A program made the translations under genes and the position numbers. A stretch of 30,947 nucleotides of DNA from a virus (lineage: Duplodnaviria > Heunggongvirae > Uroviricota > Caudoviricetes): the IMG/VR virus record IMGVR_UViG_2534682078_000030; one strand, 5' to 3'. Below the pieces are notes generated by a model. That model saw nothing but the letters and a program-made list of their open reading frames with translations, did no database searches and was not told the DNA's origin. The number at the start of each line of letters is the position of its first letter. The stretch's first letter is position 1. This document shows, piece after piece, positions 23 to 26,107 of the stretch.

Positions 23-1000
23 TGAACCGCCCCGGGTTTCCTGGAGAGTGTTTTATCTGTGAACTCAGGCTGCCAGATCATCGTTTCCGATGGAAGCATA
101 ATAAGCTTTTTCTGCTTCTGCCGGAGGAGTATGGCCCAGCCTTCCCAGCAATCGTCGATTGTTATACCAGTCCACCCACGTTAGTGTGGCCAGTTCCACT
201 TCTGCACGGTTTTTCCAGCTCTTACGGTGTATTACCTCCGCTTTGTAAAGACCATTGATGCTCTCAGCCATCGCGTTGTCATACGAGTCGCCTGTACTCC
301 CTGTTGATGCCAGTAATCCGGCTTCTTTTAGTCGCTCCGTATAGGCCAGTGACACATACTGAGAGCCTTTATCGCTGTGATGGATGGTGCCAGACGGACG
401 ACGGGCCCACAACGCCTGCTCCAGCGCATCCAGCACGAATGTCGTTTCCATAGACGATGAGACCCGCCACCCCACGATGTATCCGGCAAACACATCAATG
501 ATAAACGCCACATAGACGAAGCCCTGCCATGTGCTGACGTAAGTAAAATCAGCCACCCACAGCTGGTCAGGTCGTTCTGCCACGAACTGACGGTTTACGC
601 GGTCGCCTGCGGCAACGGCTTTCCGGCTGATGGTCGTACGGACCTTTTTACCCCGGAGAACACCGGCAAGTCCCATAACCGCCATGTTACTGCGGCGCAG
701 TTCACGATTTTCACGTTCCAGCTCTTTCAGACGCTGACGTTCAGCGCTGGTGAGCCCACCATCACCGCCCCCGGTATCCCGCTCATGCTGGCGAACCCAG
801 ACACGCAGAGTCTCCGGCGTACAGCCAATCTTTGGGGCAATGGAACAAATTGCCGCCCACTGTGAGTCATATTCATCCTGACTTTCCAGAACCATACGAA
901 TCGCCCGCTGACGGACTTCGGGGGAAAAACGAGTATTTTTAGTCATCCTGTTTACCTCTTTCTCAGGGAGTTTAGTCTCCAGGATTTCCGGGGCGGTTCA
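23..1000 (-). mobile_element. IS3-family insertion sequence (IS629/IS1203-like), copy A, 978 bp, internally deleted
   Basis: Termini match copy B: TGAACCGCCCCGGGTTTCC from 23 (right end, reverse orientation) and GGATTTCCGGGGCGGTTCA ending at 1000 (left end). It is 332 bp shorter than the 1310-bp copy B; the junction at 685/686 joins orfA codons ...RRSN to orfB codons MAVMG. Flanking triplets TGT (20-22) and TTC (1001-1003) are not a direct repeat. Confidence 0.85.
65..946 (-). CDS. IS3-family transposase, in-frame OrfA-OrfB fusion created by the internal deletion (293 aa)
   Basis: First 86 aa are identical to OrfA of copy B ([19 protein letters not shown]...RELRRSN) and the remaining 207 aa are identical to the C-terminal part of OrfB of copy B ([14 protein letters not shown]...NDDLAA). 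The programmed-frameshift window and OrfB N-terminus are missing. Confidence 0.8.
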
Positions 1001-2517: not shown

Positions 2518-3477
2518 ATGAAAATTTGTATCGACGACGGCTCCACCAACATCAAGCTGGCATGGACTGAGAACGGCGAACGCCGCAACGCCATCAGCCC
2601 GAACAGCTTCAAGTCGGAATGGTCTGCGCCGTTCGGTGGCACGCAGCCCGCGAACTACATGCTTGATGGCGTGCGCTATGGTTTTGATCCGGTCAGCGAT
2701 CGCTTTGTCCAGACGACCGACACGCAATACCAATACAGTGATGTGAATGTCATTGCCATTCATCACGCGCTGGTCAAATCAGGCATCACGCCACAGGAGG
2801 TGGATGTGGTTGTCACCCTGCCACTGAGCGAGTATTTCGACACAAACGCACAGCCGGACATAGCCAACATCAACCGCAAAAAAGCGAACGTTATGCGCCC
2901 GGTGGAGTACCAGAACGGCGAAGCATTCACTATCCGTAACGTGCGGGTTATGCCTGAATCCATTCCGGCTGGCTTTAAGGCACTGGCTGACATGAGTCCG
3001 TTTGAATCCCTGCTGATTGTGGATTTGGGCGGAACCACGCTGGATGTGGCAAAGGTTCAGGGGCAGCTGGCAGGTATCAGCCAGGTGTTTTGCGATCCAC
3101 ACGTAGGCGTTTCCCTGATGGCTGATGCCGTGCTGTCGGTGATGGCCACTAACGGTATGCGTACCAGTCACCACATCGCCAATACCATTATTGAGCACCG
3201 TCACGATGAAGCCTGGCTGCGCCAGCACATTCACAATGACGCGCATTACAACAGCCTGATGGCGGTTATTCGTGAAAAGGAGGAGACACTGAAACAACGA
3301 GTGATCCGCGCGCTGGCGGGTTTTTCCGGTTACGGGCGGGTGATGGTTGTCGGTGGAGGGGCGGAGATTGTGGCACCCGCTATCCGCGAAGCCTGCGGAG
3401 TTAATGCGACTTTCATCACGGACGGGGTGCCACATTTTGCTCTGGTTAATGGGCTGTACGCAATGAACAAGGAGTAA
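2518..3477 (+). CDS. parM: ParM/StbA-like actin-type plasmid segregation ATPase
   Basis: 319 aa; N-terminus ICIDDGSTNIKLAW...ISPNSFKSEW, then YSDVNVIAIHHAL, VMPESIPAG, LIVDLGGTTLD and VVGGGAEI align closely with my recollection of plasmid R1 ParM. SD AAGGAAAA precedes the ATG at 2518. Confidence 0.85.
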   Translation: MKICIDDGSTNIKLAWTENGERRNAISPNSFKSEWSAPFGGTQPANYMLDGVRYGFDPVSDRFVQTTDTQYQYSDVNVIAIHHALVKSGITPQEVDVVVTLPLSEYFDTNAQPDIANINRKKANVMRPVEYQNGEAFTIRNVRVMPESIPAGFKALADMSPFESLLIVDLGGTTLDVAKVQGQLAGISQVFCDPHVGVSLMADAVLSVMATNGMRTSHHIANTIIEHRHDEAWLRQHIHNDAHYNSLMAVIREKEETLKQRVIRALAGFSGYGRVMVVGGGAEIVAPAIREACGVNATFITDGVPHFALVNGLYAMNKE

Positions 3478-3481
3478 ACCA

Positions 3482-3793
3482 ATGACGACACCAACCAGAA
3501 GAATAAGTTTCTATCTGAAGCCAGCTGCCGTCAAGAACGAAGGAGAAGCATGCGCCTGGCTGGACAGCCTTACACCAGAAGCCCGCAAAAGCGGCCAACG
3601 CGTGGCTTTTCTGGCCGGGCTGGCACTTCTGAAGACGAATCCGGCAGAGGCTTACCGACTGGCCGCATGGGCTGATGATGAGATGTTACCTGTGACACAA
3701 ATCAGCTCAAAAAAGTTTGAAGCACAGTCTGCACCAGTGGCTAAGATAACCAGCCAGATGGCTGGGAATATCCGGGCGTTATTTCCTGAGTAA
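3482..3793 (+). CDS. parR: ParR/StbB-like centromere-binding adaptor
   Basis: 103 aa immediately after parM; RRISFYLKP...LDSLTPEARKSGQRVAFLAGLAL resembles the R1 ParR N-terminal ribbon-helix-helix region (RRTIAFKLNP...LDSIPQGERSRLNRAALTAGLAL). Confidence 0.7.
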   Translation: MTTPTRRISFYLKPAAVKNEGEACAWLDSLTPEARKSGQRVAFLAGLALLKTNPAEAYRLAAWADDEMLPVTQISSKKFEAQSAPVAKITSQMAGNIRALFPE

Positions 3794-4157: not shown

Positions 4158-4427
4158 GTGCGGGCTAAAACAGGTATTTGCAAGAACCCTCATCGTTATA
4201 ACCCAACATTTCTGTCTCTCCCTGAATATCAAGGACAAGAAGGTCGGCACAAATGCGCTGCCTGTGCTTTTGAGCTAGGCATAAAAGATGCGCTTGAAGG
4301 ACGCGCTATGGCTCAGAATGATTTAGTTTTAGCTAACATTCCGTTTAGCCAGGCTGGAACTGTAAGGCACAGAGATGCTTATGAAGCATATGTTCGTGGT
4401 TGGCGATTAATACACAGCAACAATTGA
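4158..4427 (+). CDS. Hypothetical 89-aa protein (GTG start), Cys-containing (HKCAACAFELG)
   Basis: ORF with SD GAGG 8 nt upstream of GTG and a strong intrinsic terminator directly downstream. I do not recognise a family. Confidence 0.5.
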   Translation: MRAKTGICKNPHRYNPTFLSLPEYQGQEGRHKCAACAFELGIKDALEGRAMAQNDLVLANIPFSQAGTVRHRDAYEAYVRGWRLIHSNN

Positions 4428-4435
4428 TATTTTTG

Positions 4436-4460
4436 AAGCGCCGATAAGGCGCTTTTTTTT
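4436..4460 (+). terminator. Rho-independent terminator AAGCGCC-gataa-GGCGCTT followed by T8
   Basis: GC-rich 7-bp stem and a run of 8 T, 9 bp after the stop codon at 4425-4427. Confidence 0.75.
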
Positions 4461-4989
4461 GTTTGCACGATAGTGCACAAGTTTGCACAATTTTTTTGAA
4501 CGACTTTTTGTACTTCCGGCCCGCGTGGCGGCTGGATCCGTCAAGGATCCGTACGTGCACAAAAAACGCGTTTTTTCTACGCGCAGGTGACGGGGGAACA
4601 GCCCGCGTTTCAGGGGGGTAAACAGCATTCCCTGAACGATGTCGCAGAGACACAACAGAATGGCCATATTTCTCACGCTGAGCATGAAAAAGGCGTGAGG
4701 GCTTTTGATTTGATGGGGTGAAAGGTAAGGCCGTCAAAATCGCACTGAGGCAGCGAGAACATACAGTCAACGCGGTGGGATTGCGTAAGAGTCTGACCGT
4801 CGATGGTGGCGATAAACTGGAAGGCGTCGTGAAATTATCTGATTGATACAGGAGCTGGAGAGCCGGGGCATAAATTTTTTATGCCCCGGCGAAGCAGCAG
4901 ACAAGCGAAGCGCGTCAGTGATGCGGCACCTTGCCGACCACACTTCATAAGTGCAAAATACGAGCAAAGAAATCAATGGAGGCTGTTTT

Positions 4990-5514
4990 ATGGTCATTAA
5001 TTACAAGCAGTTACGAGAAAAACGAGAGCAGGTAAAGGAAAGTTTTCGCCGCAATGAAGATCTGACCCCGCTTGTACACCTTGCTCAGGGAATTGTAGAT
5101 GCTTATGAAATCTCTCTGGAGCTGCCATCACAGACATGGACTGATAGCGACGGTAATCGCCAGCATTACGTTTCATGCGGACTGGAAACAACTGAAGGGT
5201 TTCGCAGAATGCCTTTATCTCAGATTCCTGCCTCTACCCCCAAAGCAAGGGGCGGCAATGATGAGCGAAAACTGATTTTCAGCATTGAGACAGTGGTTGA
5301 CGACACACCTGGCGAAGTCGCCTTCGTGCATACTCCTCTTTCGATCGCAATGTATAACGATGAAATACAGGTTCGCGTTAATAATAATATCGTGCCACTT
5401 AAAGAAGGTAATTCACCCTACACCACCGTTTGTGAAGCCATTCAATATTACGTTCTCTCTGAAATTGATAATCTCAAGCCTGACGGCACCCAGAAAATGG
5501 TTCAACTCTGGTAA
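4990..5514 (+). CDS. Hypothetical protein, about 174 aa, unknown function
   Basis: ATG at 4990 with GGAGG 7 nt upstream (the tracked ORF opens at 4951, but the start at 4990 has the SD). Terminated by a hairpin plus T run. No recognisable motif. Confidence 0.5.
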   Translation: MVINYKQLREKREQVKESFRRNEDLTPLVHLAQGIVDAYEISLELPSQTWTDSDGNRQHYVSCGLETTEGFRRMPLSQIPASTPKARGGNDERKLIFSIETVVDDTPGEVAFVHTPLSIAMYNDEIQVRVNNNIVPLKEGNSPYTTVCEAIQYYVLSEIDNLKPDGTQKMVQLW

Positions 5515-5519
5515 AAAGG

Positions 5520-5545
5520 ACAGCCCCATCACGGGGCTGTTTTTT
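5520..5545. terminator. Bidirectional intrinsic terminator ACAGCCCC-atcac-GGGGCTGT flanked by A5 and T6
   Basis: 8-bp GC-rich stem with a U tract on either strand; lies between the convergent 174-aa ORF and Q. The Q stop codon (5529-5531) is in the loop. Confidence 0.7.
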
Positions 5546-6575
5546 CATCAAGAAGAGCATAAGAATTAAAACGGATCACCTCTTCGCCAAGCCAGTCATT
5601 GATGTGCTTCATGGCCTCCATAACGGGCATCAGCTCGTTAATTGCATAAACCCGCGCGGCCTTCTCCACATCACCAAACGCACTTTTTTCGCCCGGCATC
5701 GCCCCCATCAGTTGCGGCGGAACACGGTGCGCAGCCAGCACATCATCACGGGATGCCGCCTTAACATTCATGAACTCATCTTTTGCGGTGATCTGCTGGA
5801 ACGGCAAAATTTGCACCCCCTCTTTGCCCCCGTTGGGCGCATGAATGAGCACGTTTTTAAATGCACCACTACCACGTGCACCCTGTAATGTTTCTTTCAG
5901 GGAGTCCATGCTTTCGCGGTTTACCTGCGCTGCACCGATGTAGATGATGCACCCGGCGTGGGATCCGTTGTCGTAATACAGTTTTCTGAACATGTCCGCC
6001 GAATGAGACAGGCTGGCCGAGAGTAATGCGCCGAGATATTCCGGCATGCCGTAGATTTCCTGGTTAATATCCGGATTCATCAGGTGGCACACTTTGCCAG
6101 GGCGAAACTGAAACGCGTCCTTGCCATCCTGCACATACCACCATGATTCAAGATCGCTTCCGCGTCGCATGTATTTCGCCAGTGCGTGCCGTAATTTAAG
6201 CGGTTCGCCGAGCATATTGCTTCGAAGCTCAAGGTATGCGTTACCGAACACAAACCAGTCCAGCGCCAGCGCCGAGAAATCCTGCCGGGAAAGCAGCGGG
6301 TGCGGAATATAGCAGCCGAGCAATACATTGCGCTTAAAGTAAAGCGCAGACTGATGCCAGGACGTTTGCCGGGCGGCTCTTGCCAGACCGTACCAGTCCA
6401 CCGGGGTTTCATACCACCGCCCGTTATCAGCACAGTACATATTGTCCAGCAAATCATGCCCGGTCAGGCGATAAGGACCATCAAAAGTGAATGCACTGAG
6501 CGACGATTCTTTCCTGAGCGCATCAGCGAGATCAATGCGTGAACTCATGCGCACTTTTTTATTTTTTCTGCTCAT
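5529..6575 (-). CDS. Q: Portal protein (P2 gpQ family)
   Basis: 348 aa, immediately downstream of and overlapping the terminase large subunit on the same strand, as in P2; length and position fit gpQ. Confidence 0.8.
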   Translation of the reverse strand: MSRKNKKVRMSSRIDLADALRKESSLSAFTFDGPYRLTGHDLLDNMYCADNGRWYETPVDWYGLARAARQTSWHQSALYFKRNVLLGCYIPHPLLSRQDFSALALDWFVFGNAYLELRSNMLGEPLKLRHALAKYMRRGSDLESWWYVQDGKDAFQFRPGKVCHLMNPDINQEIYGMPEYLGALLSASLSHSADMFRKLYYDNGSHAGCIIYIGAAQVNRESMDSLKETLQGARGSGAFKNVLIHAPNGGKEGVQILPFQQITAKDEFMNVKAASRDDVLAAHRVPPQLMGAMPGEKSAFGDVEKAARVYAINELMPVMEAMKHINDWLGEEVIRFNSYALLDEKTAP

Positions 6576-8326
6576 CAGAACTCCATAACCGTGAAACGCT
6601 CGTTTTCTCCTTCGCCGCCAATTGGTTCGTTAATGACAGCAAGCATGGTTGCCCACGCAAGGTCGCCGTGGCTGATCCCCCTCGCGCGGTCCGTTTCGTA
6701 AGTGATAAAACCGCCCGGTGTTTTCACCTTACGCACGGCGTTAAAGGCCGCGACCAGCTCGCGTTCGGCGCGATCGTATTCCCACCGCCCGGCACGCATT
6801 ATTTGCAGCATTTTCAGTACCAGCGACCGTTTTGATGACAGCGTGAAGGTGTACGGAATAGCAGCAGGGAAAAACCGTTTCACTATCTGATAAACAGCCT
6901 CCCCGTTCCCGCCCGTCACATCAATGCCGATGTGTTCCACGTTGTAGCGACACGTGAACTCTTCAATGACTCTGGCCTGTTCTTCAAACTCCAGCCCCTG
7001 AACGCGTCGCGTCTCCACCGTTCGAAAACGGCCACCAGGAACAGCCGGAGGAACCACCACAGACACAGCGCCGCTGTCGCCGTTGCCACTGCTGCCGTTT
7101 GCGTCATACCCAATCCATACCGGACGATTCCCCATCGGGCGGGGAGCAAAAGGTTTCCAGTCTTTCCAGTCGTCGTATCCGTCAACACCGCAGCCAATCA
7201 GGATATTCAGGTTAAATGCCGATTCCCCTTCGCGGACAAACTCACACATATAGAGATTGAGGAACTCGTCTTCGGTGTTTTCATCACGAATTTCGTCGAT
7301 ATCGGTGTGTTTCCAGCCGTGATTAACCACATCTTCCAGCGTGACAATTTGCCGCCACGTCCGGTCAGGGCAGATAAGCCCGTTATGCAGCGTATTCCAG
7401 TCCACAGAAAAACGCCGGCGTTTATGCGTGGCCTTTTTCTCGTTCCAGCGGTCGCCGTTCCAGTAGGCGTATGCTTCGTGCGTTTCGGTGGATGGCGTGG
7501 AGAAGTAGGTGCGCCGCAGTCCGCTGAGGGTTGCCATAGCGCCAGCCACCTTGCGCAGTTCAGCAAAGCGACTGACCCAGAAAAATTCATCAAAATAAAA
7601 ATTGCCCGTATAGGACTGCGCCGACGCAGCAGAAGTGCCGAGAAAATGCAGCTCTGCGCCATTGGAGAGGATGATTTTATCGCCCCCTTTCAGCTCCACA
7701 TCAACTTCAGCCGCAGCCTTCTGAATAATGCTTTTAAACTGGAACGCCTGACGACGCGACGCAGACAAAAAAATCTGGTTACGCTGGTAAGGTTGCGCCA
7801 CATCGTCACGCAGCGCCATCAGCAGAGCTTCCTGTGCAAAATACCAGGTCGCCCCAATCTGTCGGGATTTCAGGATCATCCTGTTACGTATCCCGGCTTC
7901 CCTGCAAAGGGTCAGGGAGTCAAACCAGCCCCGCTGATGCCACTCCAGCCTGCTGATGATTTTTTCCCGCAGTGCGGAAATCTGTTCCGGCGTGAAATGA
8001 TTTTTGAGTTTTTTCGCCCGGCCTTTCTTTCCTGCGGCCATCACATCCGGATGGCCATCATGCAGCTTTTTAAGCTGCCGGGTCAGCAGGTCTATTTCCT
8101 TAAAGTCACCGCCTGTTTTATTCTGTTTTTCAGTAAGCTGGATGAGGCGCGCATCGATGGACTGCGTGACACGCTGCACGGGTGGCGTTTCATCCCACTG
8201 GTCGCGTTTTTTCCACGCATAAATCGTGTTCGGGTTTATTCCCATCAGACGTGATATTTCTGCGGGCGGATAACCCTGCCAGTAAAGTTGCCGCGCACGC
8301 TGGCGCACAAAAGCGTCCTGAATCAT
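6575..8326 (-). CDS. P: Terminase large subunit (P2 gpP family)
   Basis: 583 aa; divergent from the O-N-M-L operon across a 120-bp intergenic region, as in P2. Confidence 0.85.
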   Translation of the reverse strand: MIQDAFVRQRARQLYWQGYPPAEISRLMGINPNTIYAWKKRDQWDETPPVQRVTQSIDARLIQLTEKQNKTGGDFKEIDLLTRQLKKLHDGHPDVMAAGKKGRAKKLKNHFTPEQISALREKIISRLEWHQRGWFDSLTLCREAGIRNRMILKSRQIGATWYFAQEALLMALRDDVAQPYQRNQIFLSASRRQAFQFKSIIQKAAAEVDVELKGGDKIILSNGAELHFLGTSAASAQSYTGNFYFDEFFWVSRFAELRKVAGAMATLSGLRRTYFSTPSTETHEAYAYWNGDRWNEKKATHKRRRFSVDWNTLHNGLICPDRTWRQIVTLEDVVNHGWKHTDIDEIRDENTEDEFLNLYMCEFVREGESAFNLNILIGCGVDGYDDWKDWKPFAPRPMGNRPVWIGYDANGSSGNGDSGAVSVVVPPAVPGGRFRTVETRRVQGLEFEEQARVIEEFTCRYNVEHIGIDVTGGNGEAVYQIVKRFFPAAIPYTFTLSSKRSLVLKMLQIMRAGRWEYDRAERELVAAFNAVRKVKTPGGFITYETDRARGISHGDLAWATMLAVINEPIGGEGENERFTVMEF

Positions 8327-8480
8327 TGCTCCCCCTGAGTAATTACAGGAAGATTACCCGCGCGCGAAACCGTTCTCCTTAACCCCCTGTTCTGGCCGTT
8401 TTCTTACAACAAAAGCCCTTTGTATCAGCCTGTTACGCTTTGCCATCATGACTGAAGAACCAGTCAGAGGGGCAAAAACT

Positions 8481-9317
8481 ATGGCTAATGAAAAAAAGAC
8501 ATCCCGCAAAAAGTTTCGCGTGGCTGTCTCCGGATCAACTGTTGATGGCCGTGAAATCAGTCCGGTGCATCTGCGTGAAGCCGCCGAGAACTTCAACCCG
8601 GATGTTTACGCTGCCCGCGTGAACGTTGAGCACTATCTCTCGCCATGCCCGTCAAGCGAATTTTCCGCAATGGGCGATGTCACCGCACTGAGTACGGAAG
8701 ACATTACGGAAGGTCCGCTGGCCGGACGTACTGCGCTGTATGCAGAAATCGAACCGACCGAGCGCATGAAGCAGCTTGTCGCGGACGGCAAGAAAATCTA
8801 TTCCAGTATCGAACTGCACCCGCAGTTCTCCGTTAACGGGCGTGCCTATCTGGTCGGGCTGGCGATGACCGACACCCCGGCAAGCCTGGGCACTGAGCGC
8901 CTGAAATTCACGGCACAGCAACGTCAGGCGGTAATGACGTTCAACAGTGTCCAGGGTGAAGCGCCGCTTATCTCCGAAGCCATCGAGTCTGAAATCATCG
9001 AAATGGCAGAACAACGCCAGGAAGAAGGCACCCAGTGGTTTAACCGCGTAATGGGGATTATTGGCCGTGGCCGCAAAGCGGATGACGCCAGTTTTTCCCG
9101 TATTCAGGAAGCGGTGGAAGGCGTCGCAACGTCACAGGCCGACATTATCGACCGTTTTAATGTGCTGGAAACCCGCCATCAGCAGGACCGCCAGAAAATT
9201 ACGTCACTGACCACAGAGCTGACAGCACTGAAGGAAAAACTGCGCACGCAGGACGGCGATCCGCAGAACCGGTTCACCGCAACGGGCGCAGCCTCCGACC
9301 AGCTGGCTGACTTCTGA
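8481..9317 (+). CDS. O: Capsid scaffolding protein (P2 gpO family)
   Basis: FRVAVSGSTVDGREISPVHLREAAENFNPDVYAARVNVEHY matches the conserved gpO N-terminus. ATG at 8481 is preceded by GAGGGG; the tracked ORF starts at 8448 without an SD. Confidence 0.85.
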   Translation: MANEKKTSRKKFRVAVSGSTVDGREISPVHLREAAENFNPDVYAARVNVEHYLSPCPSSEFSAMGDVTALSTEDITEGPLAGRTALYAEIEPTERMKQLVADGKKIYSSIELHPQFSVNGRAYLVGLAMTDTPASLGTERLKFTAQQRQAVMTFNSVQGEAPLISEAIESEIIEMAEQRQEEGTQWFNRVMGIIGRGRKADDASFSRIQEAVEGVATSQADIIDRFNVLETRHQQDRQKITSLTTELTALKEKLRTQDGDPQNRFTATGAASDQLADF

Positions 9318-9340: not shown

Positions 9341-10393
9341 ATGAATCTGGTGATGTCAGATATTACCCGCAACAAGCTGGGTTGCTATATGGCGCAGCAG
9401 GCGTCGCTTAATAATATCCCGGTTTCTGCGCTGGTATCGCGATTTACCGTAGAACCCTCGGTGCAGCAGCGTTTTGAAAACGCCTCAAAGGAAAGCACCG
9501 AATTTACAAAAAGAATTAACGTGATCGGCGTGACCGACCAGAAAGGCGAAAAAATCCTCCTGGATACCACAGGACCGATTGCGCGCACGAATACCAGTTA
9601 TGACGGCACAAAACGCCGTAACCCGAATAACGTGGTTGATCTGAAAAACCGCAAATACCAGTGCGAACAGGTGAACTACGACACGTTTATTTCATATCCG
9701 CAGCTTGATGCCTGGGCGGCACATCCTGATTTTCAGTCCCGCATCAGCGCACAGATTGCCCGACAGGTGGCGCTTGACCGCATCATGATCGGTTTCAACG
9801 GCACGTCTCACGCGGATGAGTCCAACTTCAGCACCAACAAGCTGCTTCAGGACGTTAACGTGGGCTGGCTGGAGCACATCAGAACCGACGCCAGCGAACG
9901 CGTTATGAATGACGTGACGCTGACCTCCCGCAACATGGACAACACCGTGGCGCACGCGGGTAAGTATGCGAACGCTGATGCACTGGTACAGGACGCACGC
10001 TCATCCCTGCTGGATGAATGGCACAAGGAAGCTGACGACCTCGTGGTGATTATGGGGCGCAACCTGTTTAACTCGCTGCGTCTGCCCGTGCTGAACAGCA
10101 TCAGCGGCCAGAATCCCAATGCGGAATTACTTGCCGGGCAGCTCATCCTGTCATCGCGCACCATTGGCGGGCTGGGCGTGTTCCTTGCGCCGTTCTTCCC
10201 GGATGCAACGATGCTTATCACCTCGTTCAACAACCTGTCGATTTACTGGCAGAAAGGTTCAATGCGTCGCCTGATGAAAGACGAACCGGAATACAACCGC
10301 ATCGCCACCTACCAGTCCATCAATGACGCTTATGTCGTTGAAGACTATGGCAAGTGCGCGATGGTCACTGGCCTGAAGTTCGCCGACAGCTAA
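9341..10393 (+). CDS. N: Major capsid protein (P2 gpN family)
   Basis: 350 aa; motifs FTVEPSV, MLQDVNVGWL, YFPDAMLIT, DYVVEDY align with P2 gpN. SD AAGGAG precedes the ATG. Confidence 0.9.
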   Translation: MNLVMSDITRNKLGCYMAQQASLNNIPVSALVSRFTVEPSVQQRFENASKESTEFTKRINVIGVTDQKGEKILLDTTGPIARTNTSYDGTKRRNPNNVVDLKNRKYQCEQVNYDTFISYPQLDAWAAHPDFQSRISAQIARQVALDRIMIGFNGTSHADESNFSTNKLLQDVNVGWLEHIRTDASERVMNDVTLTSRNMDNTVAHAGKYANADALVQDARSSLLDEWHKEADDLVVIMGRNLFNSLRLPVLNSISGQNPNAELLAGQLILSSRTIGGLGVFLAPFFPDATMLITSFNNLSIYWQKGSMRRLMKDEPEYNRIATYQSINDAYVVEDYGKCAMVTGLKFADS

Positions 10394-10438: not shown

Positions 10439-11239
10439 ATGATTACTCCTGCACAGCAACACTGGCAGAACGTGATGGCACAGCGCGCAGGCCGGGCGAA
10501 TGAAGGCGTGGACCACGCCGCGCGTACCGCGCATGAAGAGGTGCTGTATCGTCTGCGTCTGGCACAGGCCCGCCTTAAGGGCGTACAGGCCAGAAGCGCG
10601 AAAGCCGCCATCAAAAAAGAGTTATTGCCGGACTTTTCCGGCTGGATTGAGGGAACGCTGGAGGCTGACGGCGGGCAGCAGGATGAAGTGATTGCCACGC
10701 TGATGGTGTGGGCGATTGACTGCGGCGATCTTCCGCTGGCGCTGCGTATTGGTGCGTATGTGGTCCGTCATAACCTCATTATGCCGGATAACTTTGGCCG
10801 TACTGCTGCCACGGTACTGACCGAAGAAATCTGCAACCCGGTACTGACGCAGGCCGGGACGGATGCCGACGCGGATTTATCCGCCTTTATCGAACCACTG
10901 GATACCCTCCGGGAGATTGTCACCGACCAGGACATGCCGGACGAAGTGCGCGCCAAATTATGCAAGGCGTGCGCCTTTGCCCGTCGTGGTCTGACCGATG
11001 CAGACAACATGGCCTTATCACTGAAGCTGCTGCGCGAAGCGATGCACCTGAACCCGAACGCAGGTGTGAAACGCGAGATTGCAACCCTTTCCCGCGCCCT
11101 GAAAAAAGCCGATTCCGCAGCCGAACCAGAAGACGCCAGCGCACAGCAGGCGCAGGACGAAAGCAGCAAAAGTAAAAAGACAACGCGGAAGCCTGCAACA
11201 CGAAAAACCACCGCGACGCAGAAGGCGAAGCGCGGTTAA
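10439..11239 (+). CDS. M: Terminase small subunit (P2 gpM family)
   Basis: 266 aa; DMPDEVRAKL and NAGVKREI motifs and a basic Lys/Arg-rich C-terminus as in gpM. Confidence 0.85.
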   Translation: MITPAQQHWQNVMAQRAGRANEGVDHAARTAHEEVLYRLRLAQARLKGVQARSAKAAIKKELLPDFSGWIEGTLEADGGQQDEVIATLMVWAIDCGDLPLALRIGAYVVRHNLIMPDNFGRTAATVLTEEICNPVLTQAGTDADADLSAFIEPLDTLREIVTDQDMPDEVRAKLCKACAFARRGLTDADNMALSLKLLREAMHLNPNAGVKREIATLSRALKKADSAAEPEDASAQQAQDESSKSKKTTRKPATRKTTATQKAKRG

Positions 11240-11255
11240 CGACTGACCCCGTCAG

Positions 11256-11327
11256 CGGGCGGCGTGCGCGGTGTTCCGGTTTGACTCCGTGACCGTTTAC
11301 ACCGCGCACCCACCGCCCGATTTTTTT
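11256..11327 (+). terminator. Long imperfect hairpin followed by T7 between M and L; candidate intrinsic terminator/attenuator
   Basis: CGGGCGGCGTGCGCGGTG (11256-11273) pairs with CACCGCGCACCCACCGCCCG (11300-11319); T run at 11321-11327. Confidence 0.45.
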
Positions 11328-18871: not shown

Positions 18872-19447
18872 TGACATTCAGAATGAGTGAACAATCACGG
18901 ACCATAAAAATTTATAATCTACTGACCGGAACCAATGAGTTTATTGGTGAAGGTGATGCATACATTCCACCTCATACAGGTCTGCCTGCAAACAGTACCG
19001 ATATTGCCCCGCCAGATATTCCGGCTGGCTTCGTGGCCGTTTTCAACAGTGATGAGGCATCGTGGAATCTCGTTGAAGACCATCGGGGAAAAACCGTCTA
19101 TGACGTGGCTTCCGGCGACGCGTTATTTATTTCTGAACTCGGTCCATTACCGGAAAATGTTACCTGGTTGTCGCCGTATGGAGAGTATCAGAAGTGGAAC
19201 GGCACATCCTGGGTGAAAGATGCAGAAGCAGAAAAACTGTTTCGGATAAGGGAGGCGGAAGAACAAAAACAGCCTGATGCAGGTAGCCAGCGAGCATATT
19301 GCGCCACTTCAGGATGCCGTAGATTTGGATATTGCAACGGAGGAAGAGGCATCGTTACTGGCTGCATGGAAGACATACCGGGTATTGTTGAATCGTGTTA
19401 ATACAGCGGTAGCAGCGGATGTTGAGTGGCCAGTCGCCCCACAATAA
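18871..19447 (+). pseudogene. G: Tail fibre assembly chaperone (gpG/Tfa family), frameshifted at an A5 run (19265-19269)
   Basis: Frame 1 ends at 19401 with an atypical Cys-rich tail. The -1 frame from the A run encodes the conserved Tfa C-terminus [58 protein letters not shown], ending at about 19447. Confidence 0.6.
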
Positions 19448-24893: not shown

Positions 24894-25220
24894 ATGACTA
24901 AAAATACTCGTTTTTCCCCCGAAGTCCGTCAGCGGGCGATTCGTATGGTTCTGGAAAGTCAGGATGAATATGACTCACAGTGGGCGGCAATTTGTTCCAT
25001 TGCCCCAAAGATTGGCTGTACGCCGGAGACTCTGCGTGTCTGGGTTCGCCAGCATGAGCGGGATACCGGGGGCGGTGATGGTGGGCTCACCAGCGCTGAA
25101 CGTCAGCGTCTGAAAGAGCTGGAACGTGAAAATCGTGAACTGCGCCGCAGTAACGATATCCTTCGCCAGTCTTCCGCTTATTTTGCGAAGGCGGAGTTCG
25201 ACCGCCTCTGGAAAAAATGA
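24894..25220 (+). CDS. IS3-family transposase OrfA (helix-turn-helix, leucine zipper)
   Basis: 108 aa, [41 protein letters not shown]..., which I recognise as IS629/IS1203 OrfA. Confidence 0.9.
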
Positions 25221-26107
25221 TGCCACTGCTGGATAAGCTGCGTGAGCAGTACGGGGTCGGACCGGTATGCAGCGAACTGCATATTGCCCCGTCAACGTAT
25301 TACCATTGTCAGCAACAGCGACATCATCCGGATAAACGCAGTGCCCGTGCGCAGCACGACGACTGGCTGAAGAGAGAGATACAGCGCGTATACGATGAAA
25401 ATCATCAGGTGTACGGTGTGCGTAAAGTCTGGCGTCAGTTGTTACGGGAAGGAATCAGGGTGGCCAGATGTACAGTGGCACGTCTCATGGCGGTTATGGG
25501 ACTTGCCGGTGTTCTCCGGGGTAAAAAGGTCCGTACGACCATCAGCCGGAAAGCCGTTGCCGCAGGCGACCGCGTAAACCGTCAGTTCGTGGCAGAACGA
25601 CCTGACCAGCTGTGGGTGGCTGATTTTACTTACGTCAGCACATGGCAGGGCTTCGTCTATGTGGCGTTTATCATTGATGTGTTTGCCGGATACATCGTGG
25701 GGTGGCGGGTCTCATCGTCTATGGAAACGACATTCGTGCTGGATGCGCTGGAGCAGGCGTTGTGGGCCCGTCGTCCGTCTGGCACCATCCATCACAGCGA
25801 TAAAGGCTCTCAGTATGTGTCACTGGCCTATACGGAGCGACTAAAAGAAGCCGGATTACTGGCATCAACAGGGAGTACAGGCGACTCGTATGACAACGCG
25901 ATGGCTGAGAGCATCAATGGTCTTTACAAAGCGGAGGTAATACACCGTAAGAGCTGGAAAAACCGTGCAGAAGTGGAACTGGCCACACTAACGTGGGTGG
26001 ACTGGTATAACAATCGACGATTGCTGGGAAGGCTGGGCCATACTCCTCCGGCAGAAGCAGAAAAAGCTTATTATGCTTCCATCGGAAACGATGATCTGGC
26101 AGCCTGA
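25217..26107 (+). CDS. IS3-family transposase OrfB (DDE catalytic domain)
   Basis: 296 aa in the -1 frame relative to orfA, normally expressed as an OrfAB fusion by frameshifting at the A run. Confidence 0.9.

Follow-up and report, generated by a model that had tools for sequence, protein, structure and literature searches.

A probable cos packaging site, diverged from those of P2, 186 and P4, in a P88-type prophage

We analysed a 30,947-nucleotide (nt) stretch of Caudoviricetes DNA (IMG/VR record IMGVR_UViG_2534682078_000030; the window in what follows), in which a first-pass annotation, made from the letters alone, had singled out a palindrome-dense non-coding interval at 4462-4950 and proposed for it a packaging site, an operator cluster or a non-coding RNA. 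Positions 4464-4622 of this interval are, with a probability that we put at about 0.88, the cohesive-end packaging site (cos) of a P88-type, P2-family prophage. The identification draws on where the block lies, its homology to a cos region with reported ends, the conserved spacing of its repeats, the invariance of its core and its sharing with a satellite. Of the three functions proposed, a packaging site was strongly supported for this block, and the two others were left unsupported, since no Rfam match, promoter-like site or covariation was seen and the repeats were the same whatever genes flanked them. Nor did the interval hold together as one element, as about half of it (4623-4950) is not part of cos.

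Three direct copies of TGCAC were found at an exact 10-bp period (4464, 4474 and 4484), an arrangement that the window has once and for which chance would predict 0.01 occurrences, and a fourth copy was present at 4556. Elements of the form YGCAY (TGCAT or TGCAC) also precede the left cut in P2, 186 and P4, for which 19-nt ends are annotated, and in the Salmonella phage SEN5; they stand at −123/−124 (−121 in SEN5), −111, −101 and −29. With a cut at 4585|4586, the window elements stand at −122, −112, −102 and −30, the motif being TGCAC here and TGCAT in P2, 186 and P4. When both strands were scanned for this four-point spacing (±2 nt), the sole anchors in the window were 4585, 4586 and 4587, and any such anchor occurred in 19 of 300 shuffled windows. 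The array of TGCAY elements at fixed distances from the cut was not taken from the literature, having been derived in the present analysis from P2, 186, P4 and SEN5; the spacing test itself uses the P2, 186 and P4 cuts and is hence independent of SEN5. An A-rich tract follows the proximal element in every phage compared, and the GC-rich overhang segment is bracketed by a CGCG-type dyad in P2, 186 and P4 as in the window, where the two halves are ACGCG (4579-4583) and CGCGT (4604-4608). The cos sites of P2, 186 and P4 have 19-nt 5′ cohesive ends and a conserved core, the "55-bp" one that PMC9594776 cites from Ziermann & Calendar 1990. In these three phages the triple TGCAT array lies 101-124 bp left of the cut, well outside that usually quoted core, and in P2 it sits just upstream of the old-tin transcript starts. 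Among our loci, these arrays of P2, 186 and P4 lie at about 1450-1490 in L006, about 690-730 in L008 and about 300-335 in L134.

Homology to a cos region with reported ends was obtained through SEN5. Its sticky ends have been reported as ggcgaggcgggggaacgag (PMC5261728), and its portal protein, at 53% identity, is the closest to that of the window among the sampled records that start at cos. In an nhmmer search, the SEN5 cos matched window positions 4457-4621 (E 5.6e-7; next match E 0.85). This match is unique in the window. The best local alignment of the SEN5 junction in the whole window, on either strand, fell at 4556-4616, with a score of 46 against 26.9 ± 2.4 for shuffled queries (Smith-Waterman z ~8). 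The cos regions of P2, 186, P4 and SEN5 are mutually gap-free over 210 nt; SEN5 scored 24.0 bits with a profile of the other three, for which the best of 100 shuffled windows reached 16.3 bits. A profile of all four phages matched the window only at 4471-4610 (23.3 bits; best of 100 shuffled windows 11.8) and aligned the reference left cut between 4585 and 4586. SEN4 and SEN5 (Salmonella phages, Senquatrovirus) are colinear with the window over ~165 bp at a significant score and share with it TGCAC-type repeats, TGCACAAAAAA then TTTCT-CG-GCG before the end, and a CGGGGGAAC core. They differ in that the spacers between the blocks are unrelated in SEN5 and that the first 12 nt of the SEN5 end are P2-like, GGCGAGGCGGGG, whereas the window has GGTGACGGGGG.

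Conservation was followed in 120 related loci collected with a search pattern that covered 4473-4496. Because the pattern fixed those positions, their conservation carries no weight: the second and third TGCAC are inside it and conserved by construction, and the first is outside. Among ~100 distinct relatives, homology starts exactly at this first TGCAC (4464), with unrelated cargo leftward in each lineage, a left-edge pattern that matches the published hotspot next to cos (PMC9122126). The first TGCAC is also kept in satellites and in lineages with 68-77% portal identity. What distant lineages retain is the TGCAC array, TGCACAAAAAA and CGCGCAGGTGACGGGGGAACAGCCC, with deep conservation stopping at 4604. 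Among 72 distinct sequences of the P88 lineage, diversity was 0.0000 in 4586-4604, 0.008 in 4605-4622, a flank also found in satellites, and 0.065-0.077 in spacers. The tandem GGATCCGT showed a diversity of 0.017 within the P88 lineage, whereas distant phages and satellites have other, unrelated GC-rich sequence in its place, of similar length; what is conserved in the 4500-4555 spacer is its length and not its sequence. The A6CGCGT6 palindrome is specific to the P88 lineage, the satellite having AAAAAACGGTGAGTTTTT and Enterobacter phage phiT5282H AAAAAACGAAGCAAATGT. The first-pass annotation had named conservation of its motifs as a check, and the answer was mixed: the TGCAC repeats and the GC-rich 19-mer are kept, whereas the tandem, the 16-bp palindrome and a 13-bp hairpin are found in the P88 lineage only. 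A portal gene lies downstream in nearly all 120 loci, at 455 nt (P88 layout) or ~1060 nt (window layout), and at 357-476 nt in lineages with 67.5-77.6% portal identity. A search of 5426 complete E. coli genomes gave the block in 1148, about a fifth; in 59 of 60 sampled records it was unannotated.

The same data bear on whether the repeats could be operators, or a plasmid-type centromere, unrelated to packaging. Both kinds of site typically have dyads and direct repeats with a 10-bp period; regulation of the flanking cargo genes is one conceivable role, that of a parC-like site for the ParM/StbA-StbB partition pair encoded 0.7 kb upstream (2518-3793) another. Yet the block is unchanged with any cargo on its left and with either Q or an inserted ORF (open reading frame) on its right, the same spacing is found at the P2, 186 and P4 cuts, near which we saw no annotated partition genes, and a satellite without an annotated ParM gene also carries it. 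As no sigma-70-like promoter was found inside the region either, we give this explanation hardly any credence.

The location is that of cos in P2-like phages. The window is a P2-family prophage belonging, by DNA similarity, to the P88 group (genus Xuanwuvirus, Peduoviridae); the interval is 91-96% identical to its counterpart in P88-type phages, and in the more distant phiT5282H the match is confined to 4458-4607 (76% identity). It is flanked by the variable genes of the gpA side and by the portal gene Q (5529-6575, minus strand), whose 3′ end faces it; Q and P are transcribed towards it. The cos of P2-like phages is found between gpA and gpQ, adjoining a variable-gene hotspot (PMC9122126), in agreement with the earlier remark that P2 holds cos at the equivalent position; in P2, 186 and P4 as here, it comes just past the 3′ end of the portal gene and beside the hotspot. 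The same element encodes a terminase of the matching type, namely a gpP-like large subunit (P; 6575-8326, minus strand; Pfam Terminase_5, Terminase_6N and Terminase_6C, with an N-terminal helix-turn-helix) and a gpM-like small subunit (M; 10439-11239; Pfam Phage_term_smal). The portal (a Pfam match), gpP and gpM are 47%, 44% and 36% identical to those of P2, and all three genes are intact. Between the two terminase genes lie a capsid-scaffold gene (8448-9317) and a major-capsid gene (9341-10393), matching P2 O and N, respectively.

The prophage itself is probably defective, an insertion sequence (IS) element having disrupted gene A: homology to the P88 replication gene starts only at 999, beside an IS3-family transposase gene (65-946, minus strand). 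This, together with a second IS-type element near 24.9-26.1 kb, raised the possibility that the block is cos by descent and functionally dead here, an inert relic. We consider this unlikely. The 19-mer and all conserved blocks are the same as in the plaque-forming phages P88 and P88_4B11, as read from their records, and if a P88-type phage were co-resident or superinfected the cell, it could still cut the site in trans; besides, the proposal concerns the present state of the site and not its identity. The second element (about 24894-26107) carries an ALIL frameshift pseudoknot.

Several points weigh against the identification as cos. No mapped physical ends were found for any P88-type phage, and our literature search met no description of a P88 or Xuanwuvirus cos. 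Neither the P2+186+P4 profile nor a P2-only profile has a significant match in the window, and the window 19-mer agrees with that of P2 at 13/19 positions, which is as common in shuffles and thus at chance level. The chain of homology rests on SEN5, and the method behind the SEN5 ends is not stated in the passage of PMC5261728 that gives them. That the TGCAC repeats are terminase binding sites is something we only infer. The window copy of cos may be idle and never used, because the replication gene is interrupted by an IS element. Two scans of virion-derived contig ends in IMG/VR yielded none at the predicted cuts, and LR595891, the one linear record that GenBank has for this lineage, begins at the equivalent of 4509 and not of 4586.

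Some contig ends deserve mention. One (L139; IMGVR_UViG_2681813261_000011, about 1-70) breaks exactly at C|AGGTGAC, where an inverted-repeat end, which we take to be that of IS1, abuts ...C|AGGTGACGGGGG. We rejected this break as a physical end and regard it as an IS1 insertion at the predicted left cut, probably a coincidence. Three others from independent IMG/VR loci, the 3′ ends of L063 and L113 and the 5′ start of L140, break within a GGATCC-N5-GGATCC dyad at the equivalent of 4540-4542; they may be true contig ends, such as assembly breaks at the palindrome, or mere storage boundaries.

The start of LR595891 would fit a cos that is cut ~75 bp further left, at 4508/4509, with CCGGCCCGCGTGGCGGC as the cohesive end. 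The record ends in ...GAACGAATTTT and begins with TGCCCTTCCAGCCCGCGTGGCGGC, that is, at window 4508|4509, and CCGGCCCGCGTGGCGGC is GC-rich and loosely like the reverse complement of the P2 19-mer. We nonetheless hold such a cut to be highly improbable. Nucleotide 1 of the record was set by its authors "relative to reference genomes", once repeats at the contig ends had been trimmed (PMC6969025), and we rejected it as a physical end since it had not been measured. Moreover, the segment varies within the lineage (diversity 0.077) and is replaced in distant relatives and satellites, and the SEN5 alignment and the P2/186/P4 repeat spacing both put the cut at 4585-4587.

As for the weak resemblance to P2, direct matches to the 19-mers of P2, 186 and SEN5 were discarded, as their scores of 13-14 out of 19 are those of chance, and the cos of P2, 186 and P4 as defined by experiment, with its 19-mer GGCG(A/T)GGCGGGGAAAGCA(C/T), had no significant direct match in the window. 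What it holds is therefore a diverged relative and not a P2-type end sequence. The statement of the first-pass annotation that no P2/186-type 19-nt cohesive end could be found was thus literally fair (13/19, and no profile match), and the miss is understandable because neither the 19-mers nor the P2/186/P4 profile find anything significant. However, its "GC-rich block" is the diverged counterpart of that end, as the SEN5 bridge and the conserved repeat spacing indicate.

Read on the plus strand, the cos block common to P88-type phages, distant relatives and the satellite island (4464-4622) opens with the three periodic TGCAC elements (4464-4488), a putative terminase recognition array by analogy with P2, 186 and P4. 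Motifs noted in the first pass fall here as TGCAC (4464-4468), GTGCAC (4473-4478) and TTTGCACAA (4482-4490). An A/T-rich run, AATTTTTTTGA (4489-4499), comes after the third repeat and is kept in all lineages, partly by construction. The GC-rich spacer that follows (4500-4555) contains GGATCCGT-CAA-GGATCCGT, a tandem (4534-4541 and 4545-4552) that is also a dyad (4534-4552); P4 and 186 have GC-rich dyads at this place too. The fourth TGCAC (−30), an A6 tract and the A6CGCGT6 palindrome occupy 4556-4576, where TGCACAAAAAA is kept in all lineages, and P2, 186 and P4 carry TGCATTAAAAC at −29. TGCACAA occurs four times in the whole window, and three of these copies fall between 4474 and 4562. The predicted cohesive-end segment (cosN), 5′-GGTGACGGGGGAACAGCCC, is placed at 4586-4604 by profile, spacing and invariance, with cuts that are probably located to within ~2 nt, and its right flank, GCGTTTCAGGGGGGTAAA (4605-4622), resembles the CGCGCGCTGAGGGG that follows the SEN5 end. 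In a related E. coli prophage (L011), the end is GGTGACGGGGGGAAAGCCC, which agrees with the P2 19-mer at 15/19 positions and with that of the window at 17/19 and, as we read these sequences, seems intermediate towards P2.

All motifs listed in the first pass were found in the sequence. The 16-bp palindrome AAAAAACGCGTTTTTT lies exactly where it had been put (4561-4576), and the GC-rich block GTGACGGGGGAACAGCCCGCG occupies 4587-4607. Most coordinates stood as given; two ranges were one base off, those of the tandem (previously 4535-4553) and of an inverted repeat near the right end of the interval, whose two arms are of 13 nt (4862-4874 and 4878-4890), the 12-nt arms first described spanning 4863-4889. 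The 16-bp palindrome is unremarkable alone because 8-bp stems such as its own arise in ~7% of shuffles. A perfect 13-bp stem was seen in 0 of 1000 dinucleotide shuffles of the region, and as many stems of at least 6 bp occur in only 1 of 125 window tiles.

The block is shared with what looks like a satellite. A match to it at 78% identity in E. coli belongs to a satellite-like island of ~12.5 kb inserted between gcd and hpt (NZ_CM132658.1, about 4411300-4423900; among our loci, L135 5345-9001 plus L012 1-9640). The island encodes two integrases, a helix-turn-helix regulator, an Icd-like protein, an 889-aa toprim primase and an Ogr/Delta zinc finger, and further carries GGTTACA iterons, a 236-aa protein, a P2-family major capsid protein and MazEF. 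Its capsid protein (423 aa) is 36% identical to the gpN of the window. No portal, terminase or tail gene is annotated on the island, and no Sid or Psu gene is annotated there or was found by Pfam. When a 12.7-kb stretch spanning the island was compared by blastn with the whole 30.9-kb window, a single shared segment was returned, 4450-4622, at 77% identity, so that cos is essentially the sole DNA that the two have in common. P2 and its satellite P4 likewise share only cos (PMC9594776; PMC9122126). The 19-mer of the island (L012) differs from that of the window by one base, and that of a second island copy in IMG/VR (L123) is identical to it. The module running from Ogr/Delta to capsid is present in 57 of 5426 complete E. 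coli genomes. In the satellite papers that we checked, there was no description of a gcd-hpt island.

The comparison with P2 also suggests a hypothesis on specificity. The 19-mers differ at 6/19 positions (GGTGACGGGGGAACAGCCC in the window, GGCGAGGCGGGGAAAGCAC in P2), and window ends would therefore not anneal with P2 ends. Together with the change from TGCAT to TGCAC, these six differences suggest a packaging specificity distinct from that of P2. Going one step further, the P88-type cos (TGCAC plus GGTGACGGGGGAACAGCCC) might define a second packaging-specificity group among the P2-family phages of E. coli, incompatible with P2/186/P4 ends and exploited by its own satellite family, a proposal that we put forward tentatively and at somewhat less than even odds. 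The distance from cos to the portal-terminator hairpin differs as well, ~140 bp in P2 and ~260 bp in the window.

A working scheme for the site can be drawn by analogy with P2, 186 and P4. The gpM-like and gpP-like terminase would dock on the four TGCAC elements, three of them on one helix face at −122, −112 and −102 and one at −30, with the A-tract/T-tract after the fourth element as a candidate intrinsic bend. The large subunit would then nick both strands ~19 nt apart within the invariant GC-rich segment 4586-4604, leaving presumed 5′ overhangs that would re-anneal after injection. The repeat-binding protein, the bending, the exact nick positions and the polarity and length of the overhang are thus all predicted features. 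P2-type terminase is reported to prefer circular monomers. In lambda, cos (cosQ-cosN-cosB) has a nicking site whose dyad symmetry is partial, with repeated recognition elements and a candidate bend beside it. The window site resembles this working plan in outline, but there is no sequence relationship, the overhang is of 12 nt in lambda against a predicted length of about 19 nt here, and the repeated elements of the window are on the side away from the terminase genes.

To the right of cos, the interval is non-coding. Mechanical ORFs do exist in the region, and small hypothetical proteins have been assigned to it in the GenBank entries for P88 and P88_4B11. The earlier view that no ORF is credible was nevertheless borne out by coding tests, which were negative on a 42-aa ORF annotated in GenBank (4718-4846) and on minus-strand ORFs. 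Indeed, variable sites in the 42-aa ORF are spread 20/20/16 over the three codon positions, stops or frameshifts occur in several of 64 distinct relatives and no PHROG matched it; the minus-strand ORFs showed no third-position excess. The non-coding stretch runs beyond 4950, to ~4990, given that the ORF downstream matches its PHROG only from residue 14 (ATG at 4991). GenBank hypothetical genes overlie the cos core and spacer at 10994..11137 and 11157..11285 of KP063541.1 and at 205..333 of LR595891.1; the first of them has the GTG of GTGCACAAAAAA as its start codon and extends across the predicted cohesive end. These genes look spurious.

The segment 4623-4861 is specific to the P88 lineage, with a diversity of 0.065-0.069, and is absent from satellites and from lineages with 68-72% portal identity; it would be a weakly constrained non-coding spacer. 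It is followed by a perfect hairpin with a 13-bp stem (4862-4890; diversity 0.014) at the position of the P88 Q terminator. We asked whether this part of the region could encode a small non-coding RNA, most likely over 4623-4861 with the hairpin as its terminator, which could coexist with cos. On the plus strand, 4610-4900 has a better fold than its shuffles (z = −4.1), the length of the segment is kept in the lineage with few indels, and it ends in a strong hairpin. Yet the folding signal comes mostly from the 13-bp hairpin, diversity is as high as in unconstrained spacer and the segment is missing from related lineages. Rfam gave no match in the region at the gathering score in a scan of the whole window, and none in 4380-5020 at E up to 1. 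Covariation analysis of 4620-4900 with RNAalifold (64 distinct sequences) gave no compensatory changes on the plus strand and three weak pairs, in 2-8 sequences, on the minus strand. In a promoter and terminator scan, no sigma-70-like site was called inside the region, the calls being weak ones besides the terminator of the upstream cargo gene (4435-4455). A non-coding RNA is therefore very unlikely in our opinion.

By its position, the hairpin itself is probably the ancestral terminator of the portal gene. In P88 it ends 24 nt past the Q stop codon, as tQ does in P2, and its lack of a U-tract explains why the terminator scan did not call it; its sequence was seen only in the P88 lineage, phiT5282H having unrelated sequence there. 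Next comes a minus-strand remnant of the ancestral Q 3′ end (4891-4926): homology to P88 stops at 4926, and the P88 portal gene ends right after the equivalent position. Between the hairpin and Q sits an inserted 0.6-kb cassette (about 4927-5540), which replaces the last three codons of Q. It holds an ORF of phrog_5091, which probably starts at 4991 and ends at 5514, and a canonical terminator of its own (5520-5540), and this layout was found in ~15 of the 120 IMG/VR relatives. The cassette is cargo on the right-hand side of cos, and 4891-4950 would thus comprise the old Q end and then the start of that cargo.

The ORFs flanking the interval belong to phage families of unknown function (phrog_3941 and phrog_5091, by Pfam and PHROGs), and PADLOC matched no known defence system in them. 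The plasmid-type partition pair at 2518-3793 joins an actin ATPase like ParM/StbA, of 319 aa, to a plasmid stability protein like StbB, of 103 aa; it is placed between the replication gene and the cargo region, and P88 carries it too. Elsewhere, Rfam reported a full-length IS009 match in the tail-fibre region (19214-19410, plus strand, 182 bits).

The cos of the window is, taken alone, an ordinary and expected part of a P2-family prophage, of modest interest as a diverged relative of the P2/186/P4 cos. Naming the block fixes a natural genome start for Xuanwuvirus and removes spurious genes, and cos marks the exact right-hand edge of the defence/cargo hotspot described for P2-like phages. The satellite family is the more novel lead. 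A satellite with a shared cos hints at a helper-satellite pair parallel to P2/P4. If this is true, capsid assembly would be redirected by the satellite through a capsid protein of its own, and terminase, portal and tail would be borrowed from the helper. And if packaging specificity really differs, a 160-bp cos could give a second, orthogonal cosmid or transducing-particle system alongside P2/P4.

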